This document shows positions 908 through 38,737 of a stretch of 38,737 nucleotides of DNA, piece after piece. Position 1 is the stretch's first letter. Every line of letters starts with the position of its first letter. A program made the position numbers and the translations under genes. The stretch is from the IMG/VR virus record IMGVR_UViG_3300029230_000021; one strand, 5' to 3'. Below the pieces are notes generated by a model. That model was not told the origin of the DNA. It made no database searches and saw nothing but the letters and a program-made list of their open reading frames with translations. The DNA comes from a virus.

Positions 908-942
908 TCGCATTTACACTAATTTTTGATGTTCAGCGCATT

Positions 943-977: not shown

Positions 978-998
978 ACAAAAAGGAGATATATAAAT

Positions 999-1550: not shown

Positions 1551-1627
1551 TTTTGTTCTCCTTTCAATTTATATTCTGGTATAGCTATGTTTGCATTAAA
1601 ATTTCGCGTGTGTCAAGGAGTCTTGTC

Positions 1628-1957
1628 ATGTTTTATGAAAACCTGCTAAAGCTGTGCAGCTCGCATGGCGTAAAAGTTACGAATGTCGTTACTGAATTAG
1701 GATGCAGTCAAGGAAGTATGTCGCATTGGAAAAGAGGCGGCACGCCCAATGCGGCTACACTAAAAAAATTCGCTGATTATTTCGACGTGTCAACAGATGA
1801 CCTAATCAACGGCGTTGAAGGTGCCAACAGCACCGTTACAGCTTCGGATACGGAAATTTCAGCAGAAAAGCGGGAAATGATTAACTTGATTTTAGCGTTG
1901 CCGGATGACAAAGTAAAAGCTCTTTATCAGATAGCAGTTCAAGCGCTCGCTCTGTGA
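1628..1957 (+). CDS. XRE-family HTH repressor candidate (CI-like, 109 aa)
   Basis: RBS aaggag 8 nt before ATG 1628. HTH VVTELGCSQGSMSHWKRGGTPNAATLKKFADYFDVSTDDLI. Confidence 0.75.
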   Translation: MFYENLLKLCSSHGVKVTNVVTELGCSQGSMSHWKRGGTPNAATLKKFADYFDVSTDDLINGVEGANSTVTASDTEISAEKREMINLILALPDDKVKALYQIAVQALAL

Positions 1958-2142
1958 ACCATTTGAATTGTTCGGCATTCATCTCGCATATCATGTTTAT
2001 TAGTTCTTCTCGCTTCTTCTCCACTTTTTTCTTCTCCTTATATTATTTTCGACAAATTTCACTTGATTTTGGCAAAACAAAGTGTTAACATTTAAGCAGC
2101 GTAACAATTTATTCACATTATATAATGAAAAGGGGTAATGTC

Positions 2143-2682
2143 ATGGTAAAAAGACTGCTAACGTGTCTACTCGCATTTTCTCTTGTTCTCACGCTCTGTG
2201 CCTGTGGCGGCGTAGCCGCGTCAAGCGCGGCGGGGAGCACCAATCCCACCAACAATGCTCCGGCACCTGAACCTGAACCGTCCGCAGCTCCCGCCGCTAC
2301 GGTTTCAGATGAGTGCTCTGCTCTCGGTTACACCGTGAAAATCGTCGCCGCGCATAAAACTTACGGCTCTGACGGTGATTTGCAAGTTGCTGTCGAGGTC
2401 GAGTTTACGAACGATAACACAGACCCCATAGACTTCATGGGAGCTGCGCAGATAACCGTGTTCCAAAATGGTGTGCAGCAGGAAAAGAGCGAAATGTATT
2501 TAGGCGATGGCTACGATTGGGATTCATATTACCGTCAGATTAAAGACGGTGCTACTATTAGTGTTTTCGAAGCGTTTCCACTATCCAGTGAAACAGACCC
2601 GGTCGAGGTCAACGTTGAAATCATCGACTATAATAAATGGGAAACTGCCGCGAGCGCAACTGCCGTTATTGATTTGACTTAA
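2143..2682 (+). CDS. Prophage lipoprotein (Ig-like/DUF4352-like beta domain), superinfection-exclusion candidate
   Basis: Signal peptide plus lipobox MVKRLLTCLLAFSLVLTLCACGG, an Ala/Pro-rich linker and a beta-rich domain. The ATG at 2143 has the better RBS; the ORF track starts at 2125. Confidence 0.7.
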   Translation: MVKRLLTCLLAFSLVLTLCACGGVAASSAAGSTNPTNNAPAPEPEPSAAPAATVSDECSALGYTVKIVAAHKTYGSDGDLQVAVEVEFTNDNTDPIDFMGAAQITVFQNGVQQEKSEMYLGDGYDWDSYYRQIKDGATISVFEAFPLSSETDPVEVNVEIIDYNKWETAASATAVIDLT

Positions 2683-2853
2683 TGCAAGCGCCCCGGCATT
2701 GGCGGCAACCTCTGCCGGGGCTGTAACAGATACCTTGTAAACCGACTTATCTGCTACGCTTTTATAGTAGCAGACCCAGCGAAAAATATCTATACGGCTA
2801 AGTAGTTGAAATAGCTTTATATTTTGTGAAAAATTTTTGAGGAGATGTAAAAA

Positions 2854-3399
2854 GTGTCTGCTATTCAGGAATTGCAGCCGTATTGTGACGCTTTTCAAGG
2901 TCGAATACGTGAAGCAAAGGATAGTAAAGGTTACACACTGCAAAGGCTGATCGACGAATCCGGCGTACCGAAATCGGCGGTAAACAATATCAGCGCCGGG
3001 AAACAGGTCAATCCCTTGCTGTACAACGCCGCCGCGCTGTGCAAGGTGCTTGACCTGTCGCTGGATGATTTGTTCGGGCTTGAGAAGCCCGTTGACAGTC
3101 CGGAGGGGCAGCAACAACGCATTCATGAGCTGGAAATCGACAACACCCGGCTCACCGCCGTTGATGAGCAAAAGGATAAACGGCTCGAAACCGCCCGTAT
3201 TATTGTCGGCGTTCTCGCTGCCGTGTCCACGCTGCTGCTCTTGGCGGTCATAGGTTACATGATTATCGACGCGCACATCCTCAGCGATGGTCTTTTCCGT
3301 TCTACGGGAGTATCCGTGTTCTTCGTTTTCCTTGTGCTACTTGTTATTGCGGCGCTTGCCGCCATCGGCTACGCCCTGCGGTTTTTGTTCAGAAAATAA
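2854..3399 (+). CDS. Membrane-anchored XRE-family HTH regulator (HTH + coiled coil + 2 TM helices)
   Basis: HTH YTLQRLIDESGVPKSAVNNISAGKQVNP. C-terminal hydrophobic helices IIVGVLAAVSTLLLLAVIGYMII and VFFVFLVLLVIAALAAIGYAL. Confidence 0.7.
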   Translation: MSAIQELQPYCDAFQGRIREAKDSKGYTLQRLIDESGVPKSAVNNISAGKQVNPLLYNAAALCKVLDLSLDDLFGLEKPVDSPEGQQQRIHELEIDNTRLTAVDEQKDKRLETARIIVGVLAAVSTLLLLAVIGYMIIDAHILSDGLFRSTGVSVFFVFLVLLVIAALAAIGYALRFLFRK

Positions 3400-3447
3400 A
3401 AATAGCCCCCAGTCGTTAGACCGGGGGCGTTGTTATAGGGTGATGTT

Positions 3448-4584
3448 ATGCAATGCCGAAAATGTAGAGAAGAGATCCCCGACATAAGCAAATACTGTAT
3501 GTTTTGCGGCGCAAAGCAGCAGTCGGAGCCGCGCACGGTAAAGAGCCGGGGAAACGGTATGGGCACGGTCTACAGGCGCGGAAAGACGTGGACGGCAAAG
3601 GTGACAATAGACTACGCGGCCGGGAGTGATGGTGTGTCGCGCCCCGTCTCGCGCACTAAGGGCGGCTTTAAGACAAAGAAAGAAGCGGTGAACTATTTAC
3701 CCGTCCTGAAGCTCGCGCCGCGTGAGAAGCCCAAACAGGCGACGTTCAAGCAAATCTATGAGGCGTGGCAGCCGACGCACCGCGCCGGGAAGTCTACGAT
3801 GGATTGTTACAAGGCAGCATATAAATATTTCGCGCCGGTCTATCGGCTCTATATCTCGGATATAGACATTGACGATCTGCAAGACTGCCTCGACGAATGC
3901 AACAAAGGGCGGCGCACAAAAGAGAACATGAAAGCCCTATGCGGCTTGCTCTATAAATTTGCCATCCCCCGGCACTACGTCACACTTAACATGGGGCAGT
4001 ACCTCACCGTGAGCGGCGACAGCGGCACGAAAAACGCGCTGCCGGATGATGCTATACCAAAGCTTGAGAAGCACGTAGACGGCGTTTTTGGCGCGTCTAT
4101 CGTGCTGTGCCAATGTTACCTTGGCTTTCGTCCTGCCGAGTTTGTAGCGCTCGACGCGGCGAATTACAACAGCAAAGAGCGGGCATTTATCGGCGGCGCT
4201 AAAACGGAGGCCGGGACGGATCGCACTGTCACCGTCTCCCCGAAGATTCAGAAATACATTGACAAGGCCATGCAGGGCAAAACCAGCGGTGCGGTGTTCA
4301 CCGATGAGGACGGGAAGCCGTTCACGACCTCACGATATCGGGACCTGTTTTATTCAGTGCTTGAGAAGTGCGGCATAGATAATCCCATCGTCGAGCGCGA
4401 CGGGAAGAAATTTTACACCTATACTCCGCACAGCTGCCGTCACACATTCGCAACGCTTATGAAACGTGTCGACGGAGCGGATCGTGACAAGCTCGCCCTC
4501 ATCGGCCACACAAGTGATGAAATGCTGCGGCATTATCAGGACGTAAACTACGCGGATTTGAGGAAGATAACAGATGCACTATGA
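3448..4584 (+). CDS. int: Tyrosine recombinase/integrase with N-terminal zinc ribbon
   Basis: N-terminus CRKC...CMFCG. Catalytic-region motifs GFRPAE, HSCRHTFATLM and LIGHTSDEMLRHY. Sits adjacent to attP. Confidence 0.9.
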   Translation: MQCRKCREEIPDISKYCMFCGAKQQSEPRTVKSRGNGMGTVYRRGKTWTAKVTIDYAAGSDGVSRPVSRTKGGFKTKKEAVNYLPVLKLAPREKPKQATFKQIYEAWQPTHRAGKSTMDCYKAAYKYFAPVYRLYISDIDIDDLQDCLDECNKGRRTKENMKALCGLLYKFAIPRHYVTLNMGQYLTVSGDSGTKNALPDDAIPKLEKHVDGVFGASIVLCQCYLGFRPAEFVALDAANYNSKERAFIGGAKTEAGTDRTVTVSPKIQKYIDKAMQGKTSGAVFTDEDGKPFTTSRYRDLFYSVLEKCGIDNPIVERDGKKFYTYTPHSCRHTFATLMKRVDGADRDKLALIGHTSDEMLRHYQDVNYADLRKITDAL

Positions 4585-22411: not shown

Positions 22412-22609
22412 CTATATTTCGGTTATTTCCGCGATGTCTGCGAGATCAACAAAAGAGCTCGTCCCTACTACGATATAGTTTATGAACTTATCGTACTCAT
22501 CGTCTAACTCACTGTAAACATGGCATACGCCTTTAACCTCTTTCCCGCTTGTCAATTTCACAGAAACTAATTTGAGGTTAAACGGTGCTATGGAGTGTAT
22601 ATCATACAT
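22412..22609 (-). CDS. Candidate immunity protein for the MuF toxin domain (65 aa, AT-rich)
   Basis: ATG 22609 overlaps the MuF stop by 8 nt (ATGTATGA). MYDIHSIAPFNLKLVSVKLTSGKEVKGVCHVYSELDDEYDKF... Local GC is visibly lower than in the flanks. Confidence 0.5.
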   Translation of the reverse strand: MYDIHSIAPFNLKLVSVKLTSGKEVKGVCHVYSELDDEYDKFINYIVVGTSSFVDLADIAEITEI

Positions 22610-24287
22610 CAGCTTTTGTCCCTTTCTCATCCGCATAAGCGGGAACAATGTGCCAGCCCTTTTTCAGACTATAATGAATCGTAAAACAGGTTGTATCAAT
22701 CCATTCCCCGGTATATAAACCTACTGTCTTACCAATAATCTTGTCGTTGGCAGTTATTAGCTCTGACTGCTTCCATATCCCGGTTTTTTTGTCTCTCAAT
22801 ATGAGCCCTGTACCCGAATACTTATTAAAAAGATCGGTTAGTTCATCCTGCGTTGCGGTAACAACACTCGGGCCGTATAAGCCTTGTCTCTGCTGCCTCT
22901 GGGCATACATATTGTACTCATTCGTGCCGACATAATGCCCGTTCTGCCGTCCGGTGTTCATCTCATGCGAATATTCGTTCTTTATCTTTTGCCGGATAGG
23001 CAGGTCACGGAGATACGCATCAACATTACCGCTTTCACTACCTGTATTATACATTCCGTTGGCTTGCTTGGCAAGCACGTTGTATTGTTTGTTGATCAAC
23101 TTCGACTCAGATACGCCGAACTCCGGGATGTTTCCCCGCTCGAGCTGTTCACGCAGCCCTGCCGCCTTGCTGAATGTGTGGTATTCGTCGTTTAGGCGCT
23201 TATAGCGTACTGCAAGGCTTGTGTATTCCTCGTCGTCGCCGCGCGCCTTGGCGGCTATCGCCTCGCGCTTGACCTTGTGCAGTGCTGTTTCAATCTGCCG
23301 CTGTTTCTGCGTCGCTTCGTACATGGTATATTTCCTGCCCTCAAACTCAAACGGCGGCGGATCGAGGTTTTCTAACTCTTCGTCGGTATATGTCCGCTCT
23401 GCTACGCCCTCAACAAAGGCATGGTACAAATGTCGGCAGTTAACGCCGCATAGGCCGTCCACTTGGTCAAGCCCGCAGACTTCGTATATCGACGGGTATT
23501 TGTCGTTGACGTGTATCGAATACACGCGGCCTTGCCATTTCTTGTGGCTGCTCCACGGATTAGGATAATCCTTATCACGTGCGCCCCTGTGTGCTGTGAC
23601 CTCTCTATAAGGCGTATTAAGCAGCTCGGCGGTCTGCTCGCTATACTGCCGTGACAGTTGCGTTACCCCTGTCATAACCGCCCGGCGCGCGGCGACGTCA
23701 ACGCGGTTATGCCATCCGGAAGCGTATTCGATGTACTGCACTCCGCTGTCTGTGAGCTGCTTTGTCGCCTCTCTGATAGCCACGTTATAGCTGATCCCGC
23801 TCTGCACTTTCATCAGCGCATCATCAAGAACCCGCTCATACATTCCATCGAGGTCGAGCATCTGAATCTGCCCGGCTACACGCACGGCAAAGCCCATTGT
23901 GCGCGTAATGTTGCGCAGCTCGCCGCTTGTCTGCGCAGCTATGGCTGCTATCGTGCTGTCGAACGCTTCACGGTTAAAGCCGGTTTGATCCGTTACGACA
24001 GCATCAAAATAACGCTGATTCTCGCCCAGCGCGGTACTCCAAGCTTTGGAGAACTCCGCGTCGGTGAGCTTCAGCGTTTTCTTGATGTACTTATTGATGT
24101 TATCGAGGTCATAGCCGTTTCTCAACAGTTGCTTTATATGCCGGATCGTCGTTGCCGTCGCCGTCTCGTTATACTTGAACCGGCTGCATATATCGGCTAT
24201 GAGGTAATCGGCAAGCCGTTCATATAGAACAACAATAGCTTCCGGGAGTTCCTGCATAAACTCCGGTGTAATTGGATACTTCGGCAT
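22602..24287 (-). CDS. MuF/SPP1 gp7-family head morphogenesis protein with a C-terminal toxin-like (Ntox50/BECR-like) domain
   Basis: MuF core HKKWQGRVYS...GLCGVNCRHLYHAF. C-terminal GTNEY...YGPS...YSGTGL...IHYSLKKGWHIVPA. Confidence 0.8.
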   Translation of the reverse strand: MPKYPITPEFMQELPEAIVVLYERLADYLIADICSRFKYNETATATTIRHIKQLLRNGYDLDNINKYIKKTLKLTDAEFSKAWSTALGENQRYFDAVVTDQTGFNREAFDSTIAAIAAQTSGELRNITRTMGFAVRVAGQIQMLDLDGMYERVLDDALMKVQSGISYNVAIREATKQLTDSGVQYIEYASGWHNRVDVAARRAVMTGVTQLSRQYSEQTAELLNTPYREVTAHRGARDKDYPNPWSSHKKWQGRVYSIHVNDKYPSIYEVCGLDQVDGLCGVNCRHLYHAFVEGVAERTYTDEELENLDPPPFEFEGRKYTMYEATQKQRQIETALHKVKREAIAAKARGDDEEYTSLAVRYKRLNDEYHTFSKAAGLREQLERGNIPEFGVSESKLINKQYNVLAKQANGMYNTGSESGNVDAYLRDLPIRQKIKNEYSHEMNTGRQNGHYVGTNEYNMYAQRQQRQGLYGPSVVTATQDELTDLFNKYSGTGLILRDKKTGIWKQSELITANDKIIGKTVGLYTGEWIDTTCFTIHYSLKKGWHIVPAYADEKGTKADV

Positions 24288-29803: not shown

Positions 29804-30060
29804 GTTGTTTTCCTTTCTCCGTGCGAACAAAAATCATTTGGTTCAACGTCAGCATATTGAAAATAACCATTACAAACAAACCCATGGCAACCTTCTTCGT
29901 TATAGTAGTATGCATATTTACAGTCTTTACACCTAACTACAGGGACGGCGTCAATCGTAGGCGCGGTATTAACAAGCGTTGCCGCAAGAACCTTTACGCT
30001 TCGAATTGCCGTGCTTTCTTTTACACGCTTTTTCAATGCATCAGCATCAATCGGTCGCAT
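29800..30060 (-). CDS. Small Cys-rich protein, paralogue 1 (VVRCKDC ... FCSHGE)
   Basis: RBS acggagg before ATG 30060. PVVRCKDCKYAYYYNEEGCHGFVCNG...DFCSHGERK. Confidence 0.55.
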   Translation of the reverse strand: MRPIDADALKKRVKESTAIRSVKVLAATLVNTAPTIDAVPVVRCKDCKYAYYYNEEGCHGFVCNGYFQYADVEPNDFCSHGERKTT

Positions 30061-30307
30061 AGTCACTGCCTCCGTTCTTTCCCTCACCATAAGAACAAAA
30101 ATCATCAAGCTCCATACCAAAACCAAGTCTGCAACAAATTATGTATTTGTTGTCATCTGACATAATGCCGCTCGTACAGTTCTCGCATCTCACCACCGGT
30201 GCAACGTCGGCAGCAGGAAAATTTTCAATGTCAAATTTTACGTTAAAATATCGGCTCGTTCCCTTCATGTAGTCAAGAAACGCCTCCCGCTCTATGTATT
30301 CAGCCAT
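30047..30307 (-). CDS. Small Cys-rich protein, paralogue 2 (VVRCENC ... FCSYGE)
   Basis: PVVRCENCTSGIMSDDNKYIICCRLG...DFCSYGEGK. Same architecture as the neighbouring gene. Confidence 0.55.
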   Translation of the reverse strand: MAEYIEREAFLDYMKGTSRYFNVKFDIENFPAADVAPVVRCENCTSGIMSDDNKYIICCRLGFGMELDDFCSYGEGKNGGSDYATD

Positions 30308-30563
30308 ATAGCGCTCTCCTTTGTCTTACTTTCTCTACTTCTGTGCAAAAACACTGTGCAAGCTTCGTAACACAGTCATCGCACATCCAGTATTCGTGAT
30401 ACTTCGTTGAAAGGCGCTTACCATCGTGATACCCTGTCTCCGGTACTGTTAGTTTGAAGACGAAGTCCATCTTGTGACAGCCGGAGCAAACGCAGTTGTC
30501 CGTATCGCTGATATGGCCTCGAAACTCCACATCTGGGAGATAGTTAACATTAGCTTCGTTCAT
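30300..30563 (-). CDS. Zinc-finger-like hypothetical protein (87 aa)
   Basis: CVCSGCHK ... CDDCVTKLAQCFC. Confidence 0.5.
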   Translation of the reverse strand: MNEANVNYLPDVEFRGHISDTDNCVCSGCHKMDFVFKLTVPETGYHDGKRLSTKYHEYWMCDDCVTKLAQCFCTEVEKVRQRRALYG

Positions 30564-30569
30564 AGTCTG

Positions 30570-31067
30570 TCAGTTCCTCACTATCGTAAAATCGTTCTTG
30601 AGTATTCCGTTGGATAACACAAAGCAGTTGGTGCGTGGCTTGTTGAGCTCTCCGATCTCCGGGATTATAAAGTGTATCCGCTTCCGAAAGAGTATGATCT
30701 GGTGTCCATAGTCAAGCGGTACGCCATCATTCAGAAACAGGAAAGGCAGGATCAACGCGAACGGCAAATTCAAATCCTTCAGGCGCTGGAGGATTTCTTT
30801 CTTGCGGCTGAACGGCGGGTTGCTGACAACAGCATTGCAGCCGGGCGGCGGCTCCGTTGTGAAGAAGTCGCTGCTCGTTGCCGTCACGGTGTGACCGTAC
30901 TCCCGCAGCACGTGCGGAAAGTGGCTCTTCTCTGTATCGAACGGACACCAGATATTCAGATCCGGGATGAGATTGTCTGCGATAATGCGGACGTCTTTCT
31001 CAAGCGTGAAGTATTCATCGCCGCGCACCGAGTTGATTGCCAGCACATCAGCGTTAATGTTGGTCAC
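30570..31067 (-). CDS. Putative N6-adenine DNA methyltransferase (EcoRI-methylase-like small phage type)
   Basis: DEYFT near the N-terminus, CPFD, catalytic VVSNPPFS. GTG start in a GTGA overlap with the upstream frame. Confidence 0.6.
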   Translation of the reverse strand: MTNINADVLAINSVRGDEYFTLEKDVRIIADNLIPDLNIWCPFDTEKSHFPHVLREYGHTVTATSSDFFTTEPPPGCNAVVSNPPFSRKKEILQRLKDLNLPFALILPFLFLNDGVPLDYGHQIILFRKRIHFIIPEIGELNKPRTNCFVLSNGILKNDFTIVRN

Positions 31068-31290
31068 GGTTCATCCTCCTCAATCTCTAACTGCCCCGGC
31101 AGAACGCCGTCCTCCATCCACCAGTGGAATACATCAACGCCAGTAGTACCCATACTCCATGAGCCGTCCATCTTTCCGCGGCGCTGTCCTTGCCGCCGCT
31201 GTCAGTCAGCAGCAGCGGACGGTGATACAGGCGCAGCGACATATCCGACGCCAGCCGCAGCCGCTCCATTGCAGTTTGTTCTTTGTCCAT
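31067..31290 (-). pseudogene. Remnant of a PAPS-reductase/PP-loop family gene (N-terminal 37 aa to SGGKDS, then out-of-frame)
   Basis: MDKEQTAMERLRLASDMSLRLYHRPLLLTDSGGKDSAA, then junk. A different frame (..GVDVFHWWMEDGVLPGQLEIEEDEP*) ends in the GTGA overlap with the methyltransferase start. Confidence 0.55.
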
Positions 31291-31293
31291 CCG

Positions 31294-32376
31294 TTATACG
31301 ATTTCTCCCGTCTCCGGGCCTACTGCCTTGCAGCGATTCAGACGCTTTGCAATCATCTTGCCGAGCAAGCCCGCTTCTTCAAGCGGAACCTCGCGCAGAA
31401 CCTTTGCCTTTGGCGCACGTACTTTGCCGGTTTCGTAGAGCGGTACAACAATCTCTGCCGCGTCCGCCTCAAGTTCAAGCAGTGCTATATCATCCCAACT
31501 CTGCGCATACGCGCAAGCCCAACTTGCTGTTGCCATGTGTATACCCTCTCCGCAATCTTCTTCCGGATCAGCCGTGAAGCCGTTCGCAACTGCCATTTCG
31601 CCGATTTCGTAAAAGAAGCTTTTATCCCAATCCGACACATACTCTGTGTCACGCTTATGCACTGCCTTGTACAGCATGATTTTACCGTCAATGATCGGGA
31701 TATCATTTCCTTCAGCCCAATCCGTGATGTTGCCGGTGTTGTACACGACACGAGCGTTTCCGGACACTTTAACATTGCCCCTCGCCTCGACGGAGCTGTT
31801 GTCCCTCGCCACGACGGAGCTGTTGCCCCGCGCCTCGACGGAGCTGTTGTCCCACGCCTCGACGGAGCTGTTGCCCCTCGCCACGACAAAACTGTTGCCC
31901 CTCGCCTCGACGGAGCTGTTGCCCCTCGCCACGACAAAACTGTTGCCCCTCGCCACGACAAAACTGTTGCCCCTCGCCACGACGGAGCTGTTGCCCCACG
32001 CCACGACGGAGCTGTTGCCCCACGCCTCGACGGAGCTGTTGTCCCACGCCTCGACGGAGCTGTTTTCCCTCGCCACGACGGAGCTGTTGCCCCTCGCCAC
32101 GACGGAGCTGTTGCCCCACGCCTCGACGGAGCTGTTGCCCCGCGCCTCGACGGAGCTGTTGTCCCACGCCTCGACGGAGCTGTTTTCCCTCGCCACGACG
32201 GAGCTGTTGTCCCTCGCCACGACGGAGCTGTTGCCCCTCGCCACGACGGAGTATGCATATCTCTTGTTAACGACCGCCCTGTTGTATAGCGTGCCAAACT
32301 TAATGATTATTCTGCCGTTGTAATCTACCGGTATTGCATCAAGTTCTACCTGACTGGTTACTATTTTCTCGTACAT
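31294..32376 (-). CDS. Tandem 8-residue-repeat (solenoid-like) protein 1 with a C-terminal Cys-Gly-His-motif domain (360 aa)
   Basis: RBS aaaggagaag before ATG 32376. About 20 x [SVVARGNS/SVEAWDNS]. C-terminus LYKAVHKRDTEYVSDWDKSFFYEIG...DCGEGIHMATASWA. Confidence 0.7.
   Translation of the reverse strand: MYEKIVTSQVELDAIPVDYNGRIIIKFGTLYNRAVVNKRYAYSVVARGNSSVVARDNSSVVARENSSVEAWDNSSVEARGNSSVEAWGNSSVVARGNSSVVARENSSVEAWDNSSVEAWGNSSVVAWGNSSVVARGNSFVVARGNSFVVARGNSSVEARGNSFVVARGNSSVEAWDNSSVEARGNSSVVARDNSSVEARGNVKVSGNARVVYNTGNITDWAEGNDIPIIDGKIMLYKAVHKRDTEYVSDWDKSFFYEIGEMAVANGFTADPEEDCGEGIHMATASWACAYAQSWDDIALLELEADAAEIVVPLYETGKVRAPKAKVLREVPLEEAGLLGKMIAKRLNRCKAVGPETGEIV
31777..32251 (-). repeat. 19.8 copies of a 24-nt tandem repeat (coding)
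   Basis: Plus-strand unit gcccctcgcc(a/t)cgacggagctgtt with only a few variable positions. All six frames are open across it. Confidence 0.95.
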
Positions 32377-32389
32377 TTTCTTCTCCTTT

Positions 32390-32821
32390 TCAAAGTCGCC
32401 TTTTGGCGTATTCGGCCATGAGCAGAGCCTCTGCCATGCCGTCGTTATCTTTTCTGCATCTTTCTGTCGGCAGCAGCGACACTCCGGGGAAAAGCCGCTT
32501 GCACACCATGATCGAGCTGTTTTTGTCTCCGGTAATGGAAAATTCCTTTTTCCACTTCTGAGGCTGTACGAGCTCGTAGGATATGCCCATTGCCTCAAGC
32601 ACTCCCTGTACCCACCCGAAGTTCTGACCAAAGTTAAACATACTCGTAACGCCCTGTCCGGGCATCGCGTGAACGTGCTCAAGGCAGCACACCGAATCAG
32701 GCGGGACGCGGGACAGAATTTCTATGTACCGGCTCTTCTCATAGGGGGCAACGGTTATGCCGCCGTCGCGGACCACTGCAAGCCCGCCTTTTGCACCGGG
32801 GTCTATACCTATGTATGTCAA
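32390..32821 (-). CDS. RuvC-like Holliday junction resolvase (phage type)
   Basis: TYIGIDPGAKGGLAV, CLEHVH, DNDGMAEALLMAEYA. Probable TTG start at 32821, 8 nt after AAAGGAG. Confidence 0.75.
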   Translation of the reverse strand: MTYIGIDPGAKGGLAVVRDGGITVAPYEKSRYIEILSRVPPDSVCCLEHVHAMPGQGVTSMFNFGQNFGWVQGVLEAMGISYELVQPQKWKKEFSITGDKNSSIMVCKRLFPGVSLLPTERCRKDNDGMAEALLMAEYAKRRL

Positions 32822-32825
32822 TAAG

Positions 32826-33227
32826 TCATCTCCTTTTGGCACTTAGGAAACCTATATTCATCTGCCCGCGGCTGGTATAAAGCCGAAGTACCGACGCCAC
32901 CGTTGCCGGGATAGCTGCGCTGCGTGCATATTCCAGAACTGCGTCCAGCGTGTCACCGGCCTTGTCCTGTACACAGAGCACCTCGCAGATGTTCGGGATG
33001 TTCTTCAGCGCCTCGCGGTATACATCCTCCGGGCTTTCCCGAACGGCAAGCGCAATGTCGTTGATAAGCTTCCACGCATACGCATTGGCGTTCAGACTGC
33101 GCTTTTTCTTTGCCGGGGATATCTCATACTCCCCCGGCTTAAAGCCGTACACAAAGCGTCGTGCGTCCGGTATCGAAGCGGTAAGTATGAGGTCATTGCC
33201 CATGATCCGGGCGCTCTCAATCTTCAT
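32826..33227 (-). CDS. Hypothetical protein with a weak NinB/Orf-like motif
   Basis: KKRSLNANAYAWKLINDIA resembles the RSLxQNxxxW motif of lambda Orf/NinB. Low certainty. Confidence 0.35.
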   Translation of the reverse strand: MKIESARIMGNDLILTASIPDARRFVYGFKPGEYEISPAKKKRSLNANAYAWKLINDIALAVRESPEDVYREALKNIPNICEVLCVQDKAGDTLDAVLEYARSAAIPATVASVLRLYTSRGQMNIGFLSAKRR

Positions 33228-33780
33228 TCGCACCTCCCGGCAGCGCCGCAAAGCCAAGCTTCCCGGATATTTCGGCCAGCGTGTTTTTTACTCCGGTCGG
33301 CAGCGCCATGTACTCCCGCTCTTTTTCAGCCCTCACCGTGTATGAGCGCTGGAAGTTCGACGCTATGACGCTCTGCACTGTCTCCGCGTCCATCATCGCC
33401 CATTCTTTCAGCTGGTTAGGACTGCCAACGATCCGCTGAACCACCGGCGGGAGCTTGTCAAACTCGTCTTTCGCGTGATAGATTCCGCGCTGTGTAGCTG
33501 CGTTCACAAACTGCCATGCCTCTTGCGGCGTCATGTCCGCGTTGGTCGTCATGCCAATAAGGCGCTGCTTGATAGCCCCCGGCGGCGGCATGAATCTATC
33601 TGCCGACGCGGATATGTGTGCCATCACGGCGGCTTGCACGGCGCTTGCCGGGTCGTCTTCAAAGACCTTAGCCCATATCTTGACCGTGGAGCGGAGCGCA
33701 TCAGCAGATAAGTTCTTGAAGCTGTCCGGATATACCGTCTGCATAATGCCTATGATCTGCGCCGATTCTCGCTCAGTCAT
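33217..33780 (-). CDS. G39P-like replicative helicase loader/inhibitor
   Basis: IIGIMQTVYPDSFKNLSADALRSTVKIWAKVFEDDPASAVQAAV...FMPPPGAI pattern of SPP1 G39P-type loaders. Confidence 0.6.
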   Translation of the reverse strand: MTERESAQIIGIMQTVYPDSFKNLSADALRSTVKIWAKVFEDDPASAVQAAVMAHISASADRFMPPPGAIKQRLIGMTTNADMTPQEAWQFVNAATQRGIYHAKDEFDKLPPVVQRIVGSPNQLKEWAMMDAETVQSVIASNFQRSYTVRAEKEREYMALPTGVKNTLAEISGKLGFAALPGGANED

Positions 33781-34489
33781 CGAAATCCCCCCTCCGTATC
33801 ATTTCGGCTAACCTGTCAGCCGTCGCCACCGGCGCGGGCTGCGTATACTTCCGGTTAAGTCCCCAACCGTCACGGTGGCATTTCCTAACGGTGAGGTTCC
33901 AGTCTTTCCACTTGTTTTTGTTGCCCGTGGACTGCGCCGATTCGTCTACGTAAGCGATGCAGCGGGCAAGTTCGGTTTCTCCGAGGTCTGCAAGCAAGCG
34001 TGAATATTCGTTATCCGTTAGCTTTACCCAGCCATATTGCCCGTGAGCGTGGCGCGTGGGCGCGCTCTCTTTCGGATTCGTATTCGGATTTGGATTCGTA
34101 TTCGGATTGGATTCAGGCGGTGATTCACCGCAGCTCACCGTCGGTGACGGTGGTTCACCGTGAGGCGGTGCAGGAAACCGCGATTTTTTCGTCTGGATTC
34201 TTTGATGCGACTCCCATGTTGGGAAGTATAGGTAGGGCTTTCCGTCCACTTCGTAGAGGCCAACGCAGCCTATACCCGCCAAATCTCGCAGAGCGGCATC
34301 TATATCCTTATTCGTTATCCTGTCCCGTAGGGGGAAGCAAGCGCCTTTGATTATCGCCGGTCTTGCATCCCCTCTGCCGTAGTCGTCCACATACGTAATC
34401 AACGAAATCCAAAGCCGGAATTGGAAGTCTGTCATCCTGTTTACGTCCTCCGACGTGTGGATGCTCTCTTTAATTATCCGGTTCGGCAT
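33773..34489 (-). CDS. Phage replisome organiser (DnaD-like N-terminal domain)
   Basis: FRLWISLITYVDDYGRGDARPAIIKGACFP... Low-complexity linker NPNTNPNPNTNP. Confidence 0.7.
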   Translation of the reverse strand: MPNRIIKESIHTSEDVNRMTDFQFRLWISLITYVDDYGRGDARPAIIKGACFPLRDRITNKDIDAALRDLAGIGCVGLYEVDGKPYLYFPTWESHQRIQTKKSRFPAPPHGEPPSPTVSCGESPPESNPNTNPNPNTNPKESAPTRHAHGQYGWVKLTDNEYSRLLADLGETELARCIAYVDESAQSTGNKNKWKDWNLTVRKCHRDGWGLNRKYTQPAPVATADRLAEMIRRGDFDD

Positions 34490-34701
34490 TCTCGCGCCTC
34501 CAATCTGTACCGTGAATAGCGCGTTGCCTCGCCGTATCTGTTCTTTCCGGTCTCTGTCTCGCCGACTATCGGATAGCCGAGCTTGCGCAAGTCGTTAATG
34601 CGGGAGGCAAGCCGCATTATTCCGTATTCGGTCATTGCCTCCTTGCTCGTTATGCTGCCGTAGTCGGTCAAGTGCCGGATTATTCTTTCGTTCTGTGTCA
34701 T
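34474..34701 (-). CDS. Small winged-helix/HTH protein
   Basis: IIRHLTDYGSITSKEAMTEYGIMRLASRINDLRKLGYPI. Confidence 0.6.
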   Translation of the reverse strand: MTQNERIIRHLTDYGSITSKEAMTEYGIMRLASRINDLRKLGYPIVGETETGKNRYGEATRYSRYRLEARECRTG

Positions 34702-34704
34702 AGG

Positions 34705-35097
34705 TCAAAACGGGAGAGTTTCGCCGTCCGCTTCCAGCTCTTCAAACTCTGGCGGCTCGGCGTTTGTGCCGGTGCTGCGCTTGCTCTCGCCGAAATACAC
34801 ACTGTCGGCGATCACCTCTGCGTTGCGGCGCTTGTTGCCGTTCTTGTCCTCCCAATCGCGCATCTGCAAGCGACCGGTTGCAATGGTCATGCTGCCCTTA
34901 GTGAAATACTTGCTGACAAACTCCGCTGTCTGACGCCATACTACGACGTCAATAAAATCGGTCTGCTTTTCGCTGCCGCCGCTCTGATAGTCACGGTCAA
35001 CTGCAAGGGTGAACGTCACAACCGGCGTTCCCTGCGGCGTGTGGCGCAGCTCCGGATCACGTGTCATCCTGCCCATGATGGTTATTCGGTTAAGCAT
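34705..35097 (-). CDS. ssb: Single-stranded DNA-binding protein
   Basis: MLNRITIMGRMTRDPELRHTPQGTPVVTFTLAV... and an acidic tail ending DGETLPF. Confidence 0.9.
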   Translation of the reverse strand: MLNRITIMGRMTRDPELRHTPQGTPVVTFTLAVDRDYQSGGSEKQTDFIDVVVWRQTAEFVSKYFTKGSMTIATGRLQMRDWEDKNGNKRRNAEVIADSVYFGESKRSTGTNAEPPEFEELEADGETLPF

Positions 35098-35760
35098 TTA
35101 GCCCTCCTGTTCTGCCGTCTTAACGGCTTTCTTTGCTTCATTGATCTTGGTCATACAGTCGCGGCACAAGCTGCGGCCATAGCTTTTCTGACTGTTGCGT
35201 ACCACGTCCGCCGGTGTCCAGACGCGCCCGTCCTTGAGCTTTATAGGCTCTATCTTGCTACCGCAATCGGCGCATATTAGAGCCGTCTGTGTGTATCGCT
35301 CTTCTGTGCTTGCCGTCTGATCCGGGTCATCGCCGGTGCTGATCTTATAGGCTTTCATCAGCGCGTATTTATCGGCATATGTCATTGCCTTGCCGCTTCC
35401 CTTATCCTGGCTGTCTATGCCCTCTGCAAAAGTCGTCGTTTCTATGTATTCTGCCGGATTGTCGATGTTGCAGAAGCGATAGACGGTCTTGATGCGTTCG
35501 TAGAACGTCGTTTTCTTCGTTACCTTGCCCTGATATTCGTTCTCGCTTTCGAGTATCTGAGATTCGAGAACGTGACGTTCAGCAGGATAGGAATAAACAC
35601 CGTGCTTGATTTCAAGCGGCTTAACTGCGTCGATGATATCTCGCTCGGATACGGCCTTATAGCTCTTGCCGCGCCCAGTCTCCACGCTCAGATTCTTTGC
35701 GACGGTCTGTAAGTCCGCCGTGATTGCGGCCATGCGCTGATATATGTTTTTCTCTGACAT
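35098..35760 (-). CDS. ERF-family single-strand annealing recombinase with a C-terminal zinc-ribbon-like tail
   Basis: IYQRMAAITADLQTVAKN...YKAVSERDIIDAVKPLEIKHGV...GKAMTYADKYALMKAY. CADCG...CRDC. Confidence 0.8.
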   Translation of the reverse strand: MSEKNIYQRMAAITADLQTVAKNLSVETGRGKSYKAVSERDIIDAVKPLEIKHGVYSYPAERHVLESQILESENEYQGKVTKKTTFYERIKTVYRFCNIDNPAEYIETTTFAEGIDSQDKGSGKAMTYADKYALMKAYKISTGDDPDQTASTEERYTQTALICADCGSKIEPIKLKDGRVWTPADVVRNSQKSYGRSLCRDCMTKINEAKKAVKTAEQEG

Positions 35761-35770
35761 TTCTGCCTCC

Positions 35771-36262
35771 TTATTTAATTATCAAGGATGTGTTCTCCAC
35801 CAGCTTTGCGCCGGGGATTTCTGCGCCTTGCACAAGCAGAGCTTTTATCGCGACCTTGTTAGCCGCCGGGGCGGTGAAGCGGAGCAAGGTGTTATTCCCT
35901 GTTTTTTCCGCCCAGTCTATAAAGTCATCTGCAAGCTCAACCGCCTGAGATTTGCGGAATGAAACCGCACATTTTGCCGTCTGGAATTTCTGCCCTTGCA
36001 GCGCATAATCGAGATAGTCCCTAAGGCGTTCGGCCTTTTTCTCTGCTGCCTTGCGGCGCTCGGCAAGTGCTGTCTCCTCGTCCTTGAGTGCCTTTACATC
36101 TGCTGCGAGATTCTTGACGTAGCACGCAATATTCTCGATCTTGCTCTCTCGCTCCATCATTAGAGCGTCGAGTGCGTCATTATCAACCAGCAATTCCCCG
36201 GTCTCCGGATCAACAGCATTTGCAAGCTGTTCTATGCTTTTGTCAATTTCGTAAAGTGTCAT
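35771..36262 (-). CDS. Siphovirus Gp157-like protein
   Basis: MTLYEIDKSIEQL...IENIACYVKNLAADVKALKDEE...RLRDYL pattern. Lies upstream of the ERF gene. Confidence 0.65.
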   Translation of the reverse strand: MTLYEIDKSIEQLANAVDPETGELLVDNDALDALMMERESKIENIACYVKNLAADVKALKDEETALAERRKAAEKKAERLRDYLDYALQGQKFQTAKCAVSFRKSQAVELADDFIDWAEKTGNNTLLRFTAPAANKVAIKALLVQGAEIPGAKLVENTSLIIK

Positions 36263-36497
36263 TTTCACCCTCCGTTGAAACATTTGACGGCGTCCGAAAG
36301 CCTTTTGAAATACTGGCTTTTGCCGTCTATCATTACTTCGTAATCGCCATAGCTCTTATCCGCGTAGTGCTCCATCGTTCAGAAAAGCATTTTGCCCTTG
36401 TGTCTATACATGAGGTGCTTTTCTCTCATCCCCTCAAACCGTGCGCAGCTCAAATGTTCGGGGAGCACGGCGCAGATATCCGCAAAATCGTATAGGC

Positions 36498-37325
36498 TCA
36501 TTCTTCGGGCACTTCCACGATCTCACCGTCTTTGAGCGTATACCATGTATCCGCTTTGTACGTCTCGCCGTCAATCTCGAACGACTTAACGCAAATGCAC
36601 GGACACCCCTCACCGATCCACTCGCCATACTCGGCAAGTGTGCACCAAGTACCTACGGGCGCTTTGATTCGTCCGCGCTTGCCCACACAAGCTACCACAT
36701 TATTAGCGTTTTCAACGGTGATCTGCGCGTCATCGCCGGAGCTGCCGATCTTCGCGTATCTGCCGGAGCTGCCGATCTGCGCGCCATCGCCGGAGCTGCC
36801 GATCTGCGCGCCATCGCCGGAGCTGCCGATCTGCGCGCCATTGCCGGAGCTGCCGATCTGCGCGCCATTGCCGGAGCTGCCGATCTGCGCGCCATTGCCG
36901 GAGCTGCCGATCTTCGCGTCATCGCCGGAGCTGCCGATCTGCGCGCCATCGCTAACATCAACATCTTCCGGTTTCGGCATCTCCTTTATCGTTTTTTCAT
37001 AAAGGAAATCAACGCAAGCTTGTATAAAGCCCTTAAAGCCAAGCTTGAAACCGATTTTTATAGTACTTGTCGCGAACTTTCGCCCGTCGCCCGTGACCGG
37101 CTCGTCGATTGCCTCAACCGTCGTGAACTCGCTGAACTGTCCGTCCGGCTGCACAAGCGGATAATAGTCAAGCGTGTCAAACGGGTTGACGCAGTAGTGC
37201 GTAACACCGGAGCAGCAGATACCGTGACCGTTTTTCTTATAAACGGTATCCTCTTCGTACTTATGCCCACGACATATCAAGCCGGGGTTGTATGCTTTGT
37301 AACCTCTCTCGTTCATTGTTGACAT
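36498..37325 (-). CDS. Tandem 9-residue-repeat (solenoid-like) protein 2 with an N-terminal Cys-Gly-His-motif domain
   Basis: ERGYKAYNPGLICRGHKYEEDTVYKKNGHGICCSGVTHYCVNPFDTLDYY. About 9 x [GxGAQIGSS]. Cys-rich C-terminus. The start is ATG 37331 or 37325. Confidence 0.7.
   Translation of the reverse strand: MSTMNERGYKAYNPGLICRGHKYEEDTVYKKNGHGICCSGVTHYCVNPFDTLDYYPLVQPDGQFSEFTTVEAIDEPVTGDGRKFATSTIKIGFKLGFKGFIQACVDFLYEKTIKEMPKPEDVDVSDGAQIGSSGDDAKIGSSGNGAQIGSSGNGAQIGSSGNGAQIGSSGDGAQIGSSGDGAQIGSSGRYAKIGSSGDDAQITVENANNVVACVGKRGRIKAPVGTWCTLAEYGEWIGEGCPCICVKSFEIDGETYKADTWYTLKDGEIVEVPEE
36720..36952 (-). repeat. 8.6 copies of a 27-nt tandem repeat (coding)
   Basis: Plus-strand unit gatctgcgcgccatcgccggagctgcc. 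The copies differ at 1-4 positions. Confidence 0.95.
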
Positions 37326-37402
37326 ACCCATCCTTTTCGTTTATAATCGAATTTGTTGATATACCCAGCCGCTTTCCGATCTGCTTATCGGGGGCGGCAT
37401 TT

Positions 37403-37639
37403 TCAATGCCTGTGAATCTTCGTGCCGTCCGGCATGATGAAGAAATCCGCGTCCGTAGCCGGTGTGTAACGCTTGCCGTCGAGTTTCCCGGCCTTGTCCA
37501 TGTCCGCCCAGCCGTAAGACTGCGCGATCTCGCGTATCTCATTGGCGCGCTCTGTGATGATGTCGAGGTAGACGATCACAGCAAACAGCACCAACGCGAG
37601 AGCGCCGACGATCAGGACACTTAATGTCTCTATGCTCAT
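37403..37639 (-). CDS. Small membrane protein (78 aa, N-terminal TM helix)
   Basis: MSIETLSVLIVGALALVLFAVIVYLDII. ATGA overlap with the upstream ORF. Confidence 0.5.
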   Translation of the reverse strand: MSIETLSVLIVGALALVLFAVIVYLDIITERANEIREIAQSYGWADMDKAGKLDGKRYTPATDADFFIMPDGTKIHRH

Positions 37640-37773
37640 TTCCCGGCCTCCTGCCATGCTCTTTCACTCGCCGTGCTGCGCTCCTCCAGCTCAAGCACTC
37701 CCTGACGGAAGAGCACACCGAAGAAGTAGAACACCCCGGCAGTGACCGTCAGCCAGCCTAATACACTATCCAT
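37636..37773 (-). CDS. Small membrane protein (45 aa)
   Basis: MDSVLGWLTVTAGVFYFFGVLF... Below the ORF-track cut-off. Confidence 0.35.
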   Translation of the reverse strand: MDSVLGWLTVTAGVFYFFGVLFRQGVLELEERSTASERAWQEAGK

Positions 37774-37945
37774 ATCTTTTCTTTCTCCTTTCCATTCCCG
37801 CGCGTAAGACTTCATCAGCGTCGGGATAATTGTGTTTTCTTATGTACGCTTTCTTTGCTGCGTTCTCGCGTTCCTGCGCCTTGCCAGCCTCACAGTCAGC
37901 GTGGCAGCCAACGCGGCGGAACTCACAGCCTTTGCAGGGTCTCAT
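37766..37945 (-). CDS. Small Cys-rich protein (59 aa)
   Basis: MRPCKGCEFRRVGCHADCEAGK... Translated by hand. Below the ORF-track cut-off. Confidence 0.45.
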   Translation of the reverse strand: MRPCKGCEFRRVGCHADCEAGKAQERENAAKKAYIRKHNYPDADEVLRAGMERRKKRYG

Positions 37946-38139
37946 TTGCCTGTCCTCACAAACCGTATAAACGGCTCACGGAGAACCTTGACGCGGTTGC
38001 CGCTCTGTATTGCCGGAAACTCAAGCTTGCCCTCTTTGAATTTCACGTTGATATCATAGGGCTTGCAGCCGATGACGCTTGCGGCCTCCTGCGGTGTTAA
38101 CGTGGCCTTGTCCATGGCCTCGATATCGTCAATCGTCAC
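37942..38139 (-). CDS. Excisionase-family/MerR-like HTH protein (Xis candidate)
   Basis: LTPQEAASVIGCKPYDINVKFKEGKLEFPAIQSGNRVKVLREPFIRFV. Confidence 0.6.
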   Translation of the reverse strand: MTIDDIEAMDKATLTPQEAASVIGCKPYDINVKFKEGKLEFPAIQSGNRVKVLREPFIRFVRTGK

Positions 38140-38490
38140 TCATGACCACCTCCAATAAGTTTGCGCCGCATCGTTGCGGGCATTTATCGCGTTTATCATG
38201 TTCTGGTTGATCTGCACCTGCATATTCTCCATTTGCGTCTTTAGCAGCTGCGTCCGGGCTAATGTGCCGTCGATATAACGGCCGCCCACATTCACCCAGC
38301 CCGGATACTCGCTCCGTTGGTAAACCTGCGCATACGCTGGAATCGGCTTTGAGGCATATTCTGCCTCTCGCAACACAGCGCGAACTTCTTCATGTATGTA
38401 CGGTGCTGTCTGCCATGAATACTCTTTGTCTTGCGTCAGCTTTTGCCGCAGATATGGGGCTAAGTCCTCGCACGGCGGGACGCTGTTCAC
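38140..38490 (-). CDS. Hypothetical early protein (116 aa)
   Basis: The GTG start overlaps the upstream stop. No recognisable domain. Confidence 0.5.
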   Translation of the reverse strand: MNSVPPCEDLAPYLRQKLTQDKEYSWQTAPYIHEEVRAVLREAEYASKPIPAYAQVYQRSEYPGWVNVGGRYIDGTLARTQLLKTQMENMQVQINQNMINAINARNDAAQTYWRWS

Positions 38491-38627
38491 ACCTTGCCCT
38501 CCTTTTCCTTTTTCAGTCCGTCAAGTCTGCCCTGCAAGTACCCACGGACGTAATCCGCGCCGTCGGGCGGTATCTGCTTCAGACTGTCTATGACTTCCTT
38601 TGCGGTTTTCTTTTCCTGTTCGCTCAT
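38487..38627 (-). CDS. Small hypothetical early protein (46 aa)
   Basis: RBS ggaggtg before ATG 38627. MSEQEKKTAKEVIDSLKQIPPDGADYVRGYLQGRLDGLKKEKEGKV. Confidence 0.4.
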   Translation of the reverse strand: MSEQEKKTAKEVIDSLKQIPPDGADYVRGYLQGRLDGLKKEKEGKV

Positions 38628-38638
38628 GTTTTCACCTC

Positions 38639-38737
38639 CCCTGAATTTCATCCGTCCAGTTCCTGACCTCCGGCCAGTTGGACGCCATCACGCAGAGCGT
38701 GGAATAAACGCCTTGCCACATCGAACGGCGGATATCT
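38639..38737. repeat. Terminal overlap copy 2 (identical to 1..99)
   Basis: Same 99-nt string as 1..99. Confidence 0.95.

Follow-up and report, generated by a model that had tools for sequence, protein, structure and literature searches.

We examined a minus-strand gene in a viral sequence of 38,737 nucleotides (nt), IMG/VR record IMGVR_UViG_3300029230_000021 (the window hereafter means this whole stretch), that encodes a protein with a central tandem array of nine-residue units, referred to below as the repeat protein. The repeat protein is a new member of a family already in databases, Pfam DUF7666, which contains no characterized member. It consists of an N-terminal DUF7666 domain (N-domain), the array and a conserved all-beta C-terminal domain (C-domain). 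Both end domains are modelled confidently, the array varies among relatives in copy number and at three specific positions of its unit, and the gene occupies an early position close to recombination genes. As the best explanation of these observations we prefer, at somewhat less than even confidence, that the array would form a length-variable, beta-helical rod in an accessory protein interfering with the host early in infection.

Modules and family of the repeat protein

The gene and its modules are located as follows (amino acids, aa; open reading frame, ORF):
36498..37331, minus strand: repeat gene ORF, 277 aa from the first ATG, stop codon at 36498-36500 (ORF list and sequence)
36720..36952, minus strand: tandem array, aa 128-204, 27-nt period, 8.6 copies, unit x-x-A-(Q/K)-I-G-S-S-G
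36987..37304, minus strand: N-terminal globular domain, aa 10-115, comprising DUF7666 (aa 10-104) and a closing helix
36501..36734, minus strand: C-terminal domain, aa 200-277, all-beta, from phrog_27197 and AlphaFold2

Tandem Repeats Finder assigned the array a period of 27, 93% matches and a score of 394; it returned the same span and copy number that an earlier note on this DNA had given, and a consensus identical to the one proposed there (GATCTGCGCGCCATCGCCGGAGCTGCC). The N-terminal flank quoted in that note likewise reads as given in the minus-strand ORF and contains YKAYNPGLICRGHKYEEDTVYKKNGHGICCSGVTHYCVNPFDTLDYY, and the repeat protein with a flanking domain described there is real, with globular domains on both sides of the array. 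In order, the array runs DGAQ, DDAK, NGAQ three times, DGAQ twice and RYAK, each followed by IGSSG and thus forming eight perfect units, after which come a partial unit (DDAQI) and a 73-residue tail including GEGCPCICVKS. The cysteines of this tail, previously described as a Cys-rich terminus, are present but do not constitute a conserved motif, only C247 being nearly invariant in family members. As had been stated, the array is mildly acidic (net charge ~−5, isoelectric point (pI) 4.05), and the whole protein has a pI of 4.7 and a net charge of ~−14.

Because all homologues and the neighbouring genes support the minus strand, the minus-strand ORF was taken as the gene; a 293-aa plus-strand ORF over the same DNA was rejected as a by-product of the repeat. 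The ORF given earlier is retained, but its start at 37331 is not, position 37325 or 37316 being likelier. The former (MSTMNE...) has AAGGA 5 nt upstream and gives 275 aa, and the gene caller's product (P0012) is also 275 aa long and 100% identical to the repeat protein; the latter (MNE...) is the start of most homologues. Since no hydrophobic leader was found in its sequence, the repeat protein is presumably cytoplasmic.

The N-domain matched DUF7666 (PF24703) with 59.1 bits against a gathering threshold of 27 bits (E 6e-16), over aa 10-104 and model positions 3-94 of 95, and the landmarks of the family (K, C...Y.E...C..G..H.C.NP...YY) are all present in the repeat protein. The uncharacterized family scattered in prophages that the earlier note mentioned without a name is thus DUF7666. 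Across alignments A1, A3 and A4, the residues G10, K12, C20, Y25, E27, C39, G42, H45, C47 and P50 are invariant or nearly so, and C20, C39, H45 and C47, together with G42, may form a metal site. The repeat protein also matched phrog_4433 (E 4e-22, aa 9-193) and phrog_27197 (E 1.9e-10, aa 186-274). The N-domain and part of the array are spanned by phrog_4433 and phrog_14105, and these two and phrog_27197 are all annotated as function unknown.

The family is very large. At least 7979 relatives of the repeat protein are present in the protein database, the N-domain alone gave 1130 clusters at 50% identity (280 with E < 1e-10), and the full-length protein has matches among phage proteins from gut metagenomes that number in the thousands; scanning genomes with the single protein returned 12 loci, mostly metagenome-assembled genomes (MAGs). 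Its range extends from Clostridia-type phages to phages of Salmonella, Pseudomonas and Alphaproteobacteria, with a fixed early slot by recombination genes and no member with known function. Nearly all of ~100 diverse representatives carry an N-terminal DUF7666 domain, then a short-unit array, then a conserved C-domain; among 96 diverse members, all 96 matched phrog_4433 and 85 matched phrog_27197. The units of the representatives have nine residues, or eight in a minority (AQIGSSGDY, SQLAASGDY, SAATNTGDW, SQQSQSGDY, ATLAGGNG). Their C-domains follow the pattern ..G..SV....G.....KG..G.WI.LAEW....CVK...VDGE.IK.DTWY.L..GEFVEV., for which the repeat protein has WCTLAEY...CVKSFEIDGETYKADTWYTLKDGEIVEV.

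The same three modules in the same order are found in gp53 of Salmonella phage ES18 (YP_224191.1, 'function unknown'; 282 aa, DUF7666 117 bits, 11 x SAATNTG[NDY][WQ]), whose C-domain is related, and in a protein of Blautia phage Montmirail (332 aa, DUF7666 126 bits, 17 x GASSNTG[DNY]x). Similarly to the window gene, ES18 gene 53 lies in an early operon, upstream of erf and ssb. These two proteins differ from the repeat protein in that their N-domains are only ~27-32% identical to it and their units lack Ile, being Thr/Asn-rich instead of Gly/Ser-rich. The ES18-type phages infect Proteobacteria, and Montmirail infects Blautia. With the N-domain only, tblastn also matched Salmonella phages SEN22, Emek and S107 and phages of Pseudomonas, Ralstonia and Acinetobacter. 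ES18 gene 53 is a tractable model for finding the function of DUF7666 repeat proteins.

A related array occurs in Escherichia coli YdhT (b1669, NCBIfam PRK09946), the product of the last gene of the ydhYVWXUT operon, which has ~12 degenerate nine-residue units of the ARIGSSG type. The NCBIfam model matched the repeat protein at E 7e-15 (55.3 bits) over aa 126-222 only, which is far below its 300-bit equivalog cut-off, so that the repeat protein does not belong to that model; hhalign between the two gave a probability of 97.5% (E 8e-12), with the alignment within the array only. YdhT differs in having an unrelated N-domain without a Pfam match, which resembles the N-domain of a protein from a Komagataeibacter prophage (L009), in having degenerate repeats without tandem DNA identity, and in being encoded on the chromosome, where its operon includes genes for putative oxidoreductases and ferredoxin-like proteins. 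In the literature, ydhT was found only as a gene listed in tables. The Komagataeibacter xylinus gene (L009, 5512-6426, plus strand) combines a YdhT-type N-domain (..W.....Y/RWF...FP.GGSY..) with perfect ARIGSSG units; E. coli ydhT itself (L014, 6748-7560, minus strand) has the same type of N-domain, with no Pfam match. By tblastn, the C-terminal part of the L009 protein matched residues 128-273 of the repeat protein, and by eye the C-terminal part of YdhT resembles that of L009. Because L009 pairs a YdhT-type N-domain with an array and C-terminal part matching the repeat protein, N-domains appear to be exchangeable on a constant array-plus-cap unit. The analysis thereby links DUF7666, the PHROG of the C-domain and YdhT, which databases list apart.

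Variation and predicted fold of the array

The number of units in the 120 closest relatives ranges broadly from 1 to 21, confirming the repeat-number polymorphism for which the earlier note had proposed a check. Overall identity of these relatives to the window protein is 42-100%, mostly >70%, with closely similar N-terminal sequences. In P0430, a more distant relative, the end domains are joined directly, with zero units. Across 1301 units, the entropy of positions 3 and 5-9 (A, I, G, S, S, G) did not exceed 0.09 bit, compared with 2.3 bits at position 1 (D/Y/N/R/G/K), 2.4 bits at position 2 (A/Y/G/D/S/F) and 1.0 bit at position 4 (Q or K). In the DNA of the window array, differences between units are confined to codons 1, 2 and 4 and all of them change the amino acid, and the other six codons are identical between units, synonymous sites included. 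Arrays of one Caulobacteraceae prophage and one Komagataeibacter prophage likewise vary only at codons 1, 2 and 4, with different codons for the constant part, and Firmicutes-type and Alphaproteobacteria-type prophages both preserve the pattern A-x-I/L-G/A-S-S-G although they encode it with different codons. Since the constant codons are identical even at synonymous sites, the units appear to be homogenized by recombination or slippage, with three positions staying polymorphic and using a similar small alphabet in distant lineages. The length variation is thus extreme and apparently ongoing, and the sequence variation seems restricted to three codons under concerted evolution. The close relatives, examined for an alternation of the variable residues over 18 residues (two units), showed none; such a super-period is visible in many more distant relatives.

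A diversity-generating retroelement is an unlikely source of this variation: differences between units are not adenine-specific (G/A/T at one site, G/A or C/A elsewhere), and no reverse transcriptase was found among the ORFs scanned, namely the ten largest of the structural region and several early genes. In a laboratory-evolved line of Serratia symbiotica, the mutation table of PMC12505973 lists a 54-bp deletion in a gene annotated ydhT_1; if ydhT_1 has a 27-bp period, this would be a loss of two 27-bp units and thus a direct contraction of an array.

The arrays also leave traces in databases, where they break metagenome assemblies and generate frame-shifted 'proteins'. Two of the loci (L002 and L005) are the two ends of one MAG contig (CAKVCR010000003.1, 46,082 bp, binned 'Odoribacter'), and both stop inside the nonapeptide array of one DUF7666 gene; this contig represents a circular phage genome that was opened at the array during assembly. 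Eight family entries (P0248, P0251, P0263, P0289, P0367, P0437, P0449 and P0450) contain a frame-shifted reading inside the array, for example ...PRSAARATTPRSAAR..., and these are genuine frameshift variants or else result from repeats wrongly sequenced or assembled.

Structures were predicted with AlphaFold2 as monomers. With a shallow alignment (effective number of sequences, Neff, ~1.7), the C-domain was modelled and the N-domain had a mean predicted local distance difference test (pLDDT) score of 50; with 66 diverse sequences, the mean pLDDT was 77. The N-domain (aa 10-115) reached a pLDDT of ~90 or above as a small alpha/beta domain with strands at 9-15, 18-20, 30-32, 44-47, 68-74, 85-88 and 90-96 and helices at 50-55 and 98-113. 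The C-domain (aa 203-277) was all-beta, with a pLDDT of 76-94 in both runs. Where confidence rises, strands are placed at aa 194, 203, 212 and 221, exactly nine residues apart. Because this spacing runs on into the C-domain, the C-domain appears in the model to start as a continuation of the nine-residue register, followed by a small beta domain.

A sequence search of the PDB returned nothing (best E 0.92). Foldseek against BFVD returned phage and giant-virus DUF7666 proteins, together with a protein of Rheinheimera phage Barba28A named 'pentapeptide' (E 2e-6), mimivirus ankyrin-repeat proteins (E 0.004-0.07) and a 'RIIB lysis inhibitor' of Salmonella phage 38 (E 0.02). Because pentapeptide- and ankyrin-repeat proteins with the DUF7666 fold are among these matches, the models suggest that different types of repeat scaffold have this fold attached as a terminal piece.

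For the fold of the array, sister proteins with eight-residue units between the same end domains appear to provide the sole homology-based clue. One of them (P0339) matched Gp5_trimer_C at 42.5 bits (cut-off 30.9), another (P0338) matched Gp5_C at 25.9 bits (cut-off 20.4), and sister proteins of this kind are near the threshold for DUF2345 of VgrG. Gp5_C and Gp5_trimer_C stand for the needle of T4 gp5, a triple-stranded beta-helix. The C-terminal beta-helices of T4 gp5 and VgrG resemble the repeat protein in their short-period repeats with a fixed pattern of small or hydrophobic residues. However, the unit of the repeat protein has nine residues instead of eight and matches neither Gp5_C nor Gp5_trimer_C, and the protein stands outside the baseplate and lacks a lysozyme or OB-fold domain.

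Other known repeats were considered for the array. The RTX beta-roll (GGxGxDxUx) shares a nine-residue period, a Gly-rich turn with a short strand, frequent Asp in the turn and, in many DUF7666 relatives, the 18-residue super-period. It was rejected, since the register differs (Ala/Ile at i and i+2 instead of a single hydrophobic residue), no secretion signal is present, Asp is not conserved (position 1 in 565 of 1301 units, 43%; position 2 in 140, 11%) and the sole match was RTX_toxin at E 0.73. Pentapeptide repeats (A(D/N)LXX, as in Qnr and MfpA) were rejected because the period is nine instead of five and no Pentapeptide model of Pfam matched, and collagen or tail fibre because the matches are restricted to the low-complexity array.

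Proposed function and competing explanations

In all contexts examined, the DUF7666 gene comes after an integrase/repressor/cro or antirepressor block and before recombination or SSB genes. This slot between the lysogeny switch and the recombination/replication genes was found in the window, in a 97% identical relative on a JGI contig (L001), in L006, in L015-L018 and in ES18. The genes that follow it are these:
Window and L001: Gp157, ERF, SSB
Caulobacteraceae prophage (L006): annealing-protein-like ORF, then SSB-like ORF (by eye)
Komagataeibacter prophage (L009): 357-aa ORF, DUF1351-like by eye
L015: AAA_23, RecT, SSB
L018: small ORFs, then SSB genes

In the annotated PL operon of ES18, gene 53 comes first after an N-like antiterminator and is followed by a putative terminator, cIII, kil, erf, ssb and abc2. 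The corresponding slot in lambda and P22 holds ral, sieB and similar genes acting against host restriction or other phages. Because of this early slot, a host-interference role is proposed for the repeat protein.

In the explanation that we prefer, each unit would contribute one short beta-strand (A-Q/K-I-G) and one tight turn (S-S-G-x-x), and the stacked units would build a beta-helical rod, most probably oligomeric and of the type seen in the T4 gp5 needle, with the C-domain as a cap. The gp5-like form is suggested because the sister eight-residue arrays pass the Pfam Gp5 thresholds. Ala and Ile would point inward, and the three variable positions would point outward as a column of Asp/Asn/Tyr/Arg, Gly/Ala/Asp/Tyr/Ser and Gln/Lys. 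The number of units would set the length of the rod and hence the distance between the end domains, and slippage or unequal recombination among the near-identical 27-nt units would change this number fast. The protein, made early, would bind a host or rival-phage factor in host take-over or counter-defence, and would be neither an enzyme nor a part of the virion; the DUF7666 domain would be its recognition or effector end, possibly stabilized by a metal.

Several results weigh against this explanation. Over aa 125-200, AlphaFold2 gave the array a pLDDT of ~50 and assigned it no secondary structure, so the solenoid fold named in the earlier note was not recovered. Foldseek against the PDB found nothing for the end domains (best E 0.36), and the repeat protein's own nine-residue units matched no Gp5 or beta-helix model in Pfam at E up to 1. 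Polymorphism at positions 1, 2 and 4 may reflect selection on an exposed surface, or it may instead reflect tolerance at turn positions, since Asp, Asn and Gly, the classic tight-turn residues, are abundant there. As to function, genome position is circumstantial evidence, and YdhT-type arrays are not restricted to phage-host conflict, as ydhT belongs to an anaerobic oxidoreductase operon. No model of PADLOC, which covers defence proteins and not counter-defence proteins, was matched by the repeat protein at E up to 1, and its identification as a known defence protein was rejected. A full-text literature search for DUF7666 and DUF5758 returned nothing, and no experiment on any family member was found; literature on Gp157 and on pentapeptide repeats or DNA mimics likewise held nothing on the DUF7666 repeat family. 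With regard to the array model, an intertwined oligomer would explain the low pLDDT of a monomer prediction.

A disordered Gly/Ser-rich tether, whose copy number drifts neutrally by slippage and which leaves all function to the end domains, would accommodate the low pLDDT and missing secondary structure over aa 125-200, the natural variants with 0-3 units, in which a long array is evidently non-essential, and the homogenization even at synonymous sites, as slippage predicts. We nevertheless consider it unlikely and favour a structured array, because six of the nine positions are invariant over 1301 units, a fixed hydrophobic residue among them, because the unit pattern is kept across phyla with different codons, and because strands spaced nine residues apart appear where the model becomes confident. 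The sister eight-residue arrays above the Pfam thresholds for the gp5 beta-helix also argue against a tether, and YdhT keeps its ~12 degenerate units without tandem DNA identity, which points to a folded repeat.

Going beyond the rod as a spacer of end domains, the array itself could be an evolvable recognition surface and not a passive spacer, a cassette-shuffled, length-tunable binder directed against a fast-evolving host or rival-phage factor; this extension we regard as doubtful, and less probable than the tether. Concerted evolution would fix the six constant codons, the outward positions would draw on Asp/Asn/Tyr, Gly/Asp/Ala/Tyr/Ser and Gln/Lys/Arg across phyla, and recombination would reshuffle the number and order of units for use early in infection. 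Such a binder would be loosely comparable to variable repeat receptors, and bacteria would have captured the scaffold as YdhT. Should the variable positions indeed form such a surface for binding, the family would offer a repeat scaffold whose length is naturally adjustable.

The earlier note had also paired the repeat protein with a second protein of the window, suggesting that the two share a C-x-x-G-x-H domain and have a paired or redundant early function around the recombination/replication module. This second protein has the following features:
31294..32376, minus strand: 24-nt-repeat protein, 360 aa from MYEKIV, with an N-terminal part, an array and a DUF5758-like C-terminal domain
31775-32251, minus strand: 24-nt array, 19.9 copies of GNSSV(E/V)A(R/W) (Tandem Repeats Finder)

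As a pair of paralogues, the two proteins would have in common a short-period array joined to a small domain, arrays that both resemble gp5-type repeats, and the presence of both genes in the related phage L001. The 24-nt array matches T4 gp5 'baseplate hub' PHROGs at E 2e-6, and judged by their sequences the two proteins clearly share a kind of array that is short in period, gp5-like and variable in copy number. Relatives of the 24-nt-repeat protein (P0121-P0240) vary in copy number and have far fewer units, P0121 having 256 aa compared with 360 aa. In viral proteins DUF5758, like DUF7666, is a small domain that accompanies repeat arrays and bears a C-x-x-G-x-H landmark. With DUF5758 (PF19062; cut-off 26.9 bits), the 24-nt-repeat protein scored 25.5 bits over its C-terminal domain, and its close relative P0121 scored 26.4. 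DUF7666 matched the same residues below threshold (15.7 bits at E 0.022; E 0.012-0.022 across scans). Within the family of the 24-nt-repeat protein, 44 of 44 members matched DUF5758 and 19 of 44 matched DUF7666 below threshold (best 4.8e-4).

Comparing this C-terminal domain with DUF7666 by hhalign gave:
133-sequence DUF7666 profile: probability 2%, E 0.022
Alignment A3 DUF7666 profile: probability 0.7%, E 0.078
ES18/Montmirail/Caulobacter DUF7666 profile: probability 16%, E 0.0016, 81 columns, motifs in register

The 133-sequence and A3 profiles derive from the same closely related set of DUF7666 representatives. The profile-profile alignments pair the same landmarks, F-x-Y..G and then C-x-x-G-x-H. 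The proposed shared domain is thus weakly backed by the sub-threshold DUF7666 matches and the aligned landmarks, but the hhalign probabilities are only 0.7-16% and not significant, and hidden Markov models (HMMs) built from 250 and from 3 DUF7666 domains scored the C-terminal domain no better than 15-17% of 20,000 shuffles. None of 96 diverse DUF7666 proteins matched DUF5758 or the PHROGs of the 24-nt-repeat protein, and the repeat protein itself has no DUF5758 match and is not a member of that family. The 24-nt-repeat protein retains the middle Cys and the His but lacks the other two conserved Cys/His positions out of four, and the domain is N-terminal in the repeat protein and C-terminal in the other. 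By tblastn, the C-terminal domain of the 24-nt-repeat protein had no match in cultured phages. A remote common origin of the two domains is possible, at roughly even chances, and not demonstrated. A paired or redundant function is not supported by gene distribution: DUF7666 genes stand in four other phage contexts without a DUF5758 partner within 7 kb, and relatives of the 24-nt-repeat protein, whose co-occurrence with DUF7666 genes had been proposed as a check, occur in phages without a nearby DUF7666 gene, in one case with Gp157 and SSB. Each gene is thus found without the other, and we judge a paralogous pair with a joint function to be as doubtful as the recognition surface.

Phages and bacteria use pentapeptide-repeat proteins, Ocr and Gam to block DNA enzymes. 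The repeat protein might similarly be a DNA mimic, an acidic beta-helix that would block a host nuclease or restriction enzyme (RecBCD/AddAB, restriction-modification) and so shield linear phage DNA for ERF and SSB. The acidity of the protein and its array, the location of the gene directly upstream of a recombination module in distant phages, and the DUF7666 fold on the pentapeptide-repeat protein of Rheinheimera phage Barba28A found by Foldseek are consistent with such a role, and the likeness to those inhibitors lies in their being acidic repeat or rod-like proteins. However, the acidity here is modest and not conserved in the family: the variable positions are N/D/Y and W/Q in ES18 and D/N/Y and R/W/C in Montmirail, and many arrays are rich in Tyr, Asn and Ser. 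No sequence or structural match to pentapeptide proteins, Ocr or Gam was found, ES18 already has an anti-RecBCD gene (abc2), and variants with 0-3 units would be too short to mimic DNA, so that DNA mimicry seems improbable, a little more so than the paralogous pair.

That the repeat protein is a virion component akin to tail fibres or needles is highly improbable: weak matches to tail fibre PHROGs (E 0.02-0.05), stronger matches of some relatives to tail fibre or collagen-like families and the gp5-like repeats would speak for it, but the tail fibre matches are restricted to the low-complexity array, the gene is part of the early operon and well separated from the structural module (~5-27 kb), as in every phage examined, and E. 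coli YdhT is a chromosomal, non-phage protein.

Genome setting and neighbouring features

The genes from ~38.7 kb down to ~4.9 kb are all on the minus strand. On the 3′ side of the repeat gene, the order is a 40-aa ORF, Siphovirus Gp157 (35771-36283), ERF (35098-35760) and SSB, then a replication initiator, a helicase-loader-like protein, a NinB/Orf-like protein, a RuvC-type Holliday junction resolvase (32390-32842), whose gene is just upstream of that of the 24-nt-repeat protein, and the 24-nt-repeat protein (31294-32376); the placement of Gp157, ERF and RuvC agrees with that given earlier. Terminase, an SPP1-type portal, minor capsid protein and capsid protein follow in the structural module. 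At the left end lies an integrase (3448-4584, plus strand), and further plus-strand ORFs to its left are probably lysogeny genes. The source is a temperate siphovirus-type phage with the repeat gene in its early lytic operon. Megablast of 30000-38737 against 50,697 phage records gave no match, and therefore no close cultured relative is known.

In L001, the order is integrase, helix-turn-helix (HTH) genes, small early genes, the DUF7666 gene, Gp157, ERF and SSB, with a DUF5758-like gene further on and later dUTPase and terminase. The block with the integrase and lysogeny side (1-4584) and the first early genes (37400-38737) sit at opposite ends of the window and are adjacent in L001. Because of this adjacency, the window looks like a circularly permuted, roughly complete phage genome.

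Two further features adjoin the repeat gene:
37319..37347, plus strand: sigma-70-type promoter consensus (TTGACA, 17 nt, TATAAT), antisense to the 5′ end of the repeat gene
36379..36501, minus strand: 40-aa ORF, whose ATG overlaps the repeat-gene stop (ATGA; ORF list and sequence)

In a promoter scan, the first of these matched the sigma-70 consensus at 12 of 12 positions. It spans the start codons of the repeat gene, points away from that gene to the upstream early genes, is followed by a weak hairpin and T-run at 37381-37407, and recurs in L001, a near-identical phage. A divergent transcript or a short antisense RNA could start from it. The ATGA overlap of the 40-aa ORF, with Gp157 following at 36283, suggests that this ORF is translationally coupled to the repeat gene. 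In the corresponding gap of L001, the gene caller placed a 79-aa gene on the opposite strand.

Elsewhere in the window, the replication-initiator ORF (33773-34489, minus strand) contains a 6-nt (TTCGGA x 7.5) and an 18-nt tandem repeat at 34071-34114, which may be origin iterons; the lambda origin lies within gene O. Minor capsid protein 2 (22602-24287, minus strand) matched Phage_min_cap2 at 248 bits and, in its C-terminal part, Ntox50 ('bacterial toxin 50') over aa 444-549 (E 6e-17); it appears to be a head-protein/toxin fusion of the MuF polymorphic-toxin kind.

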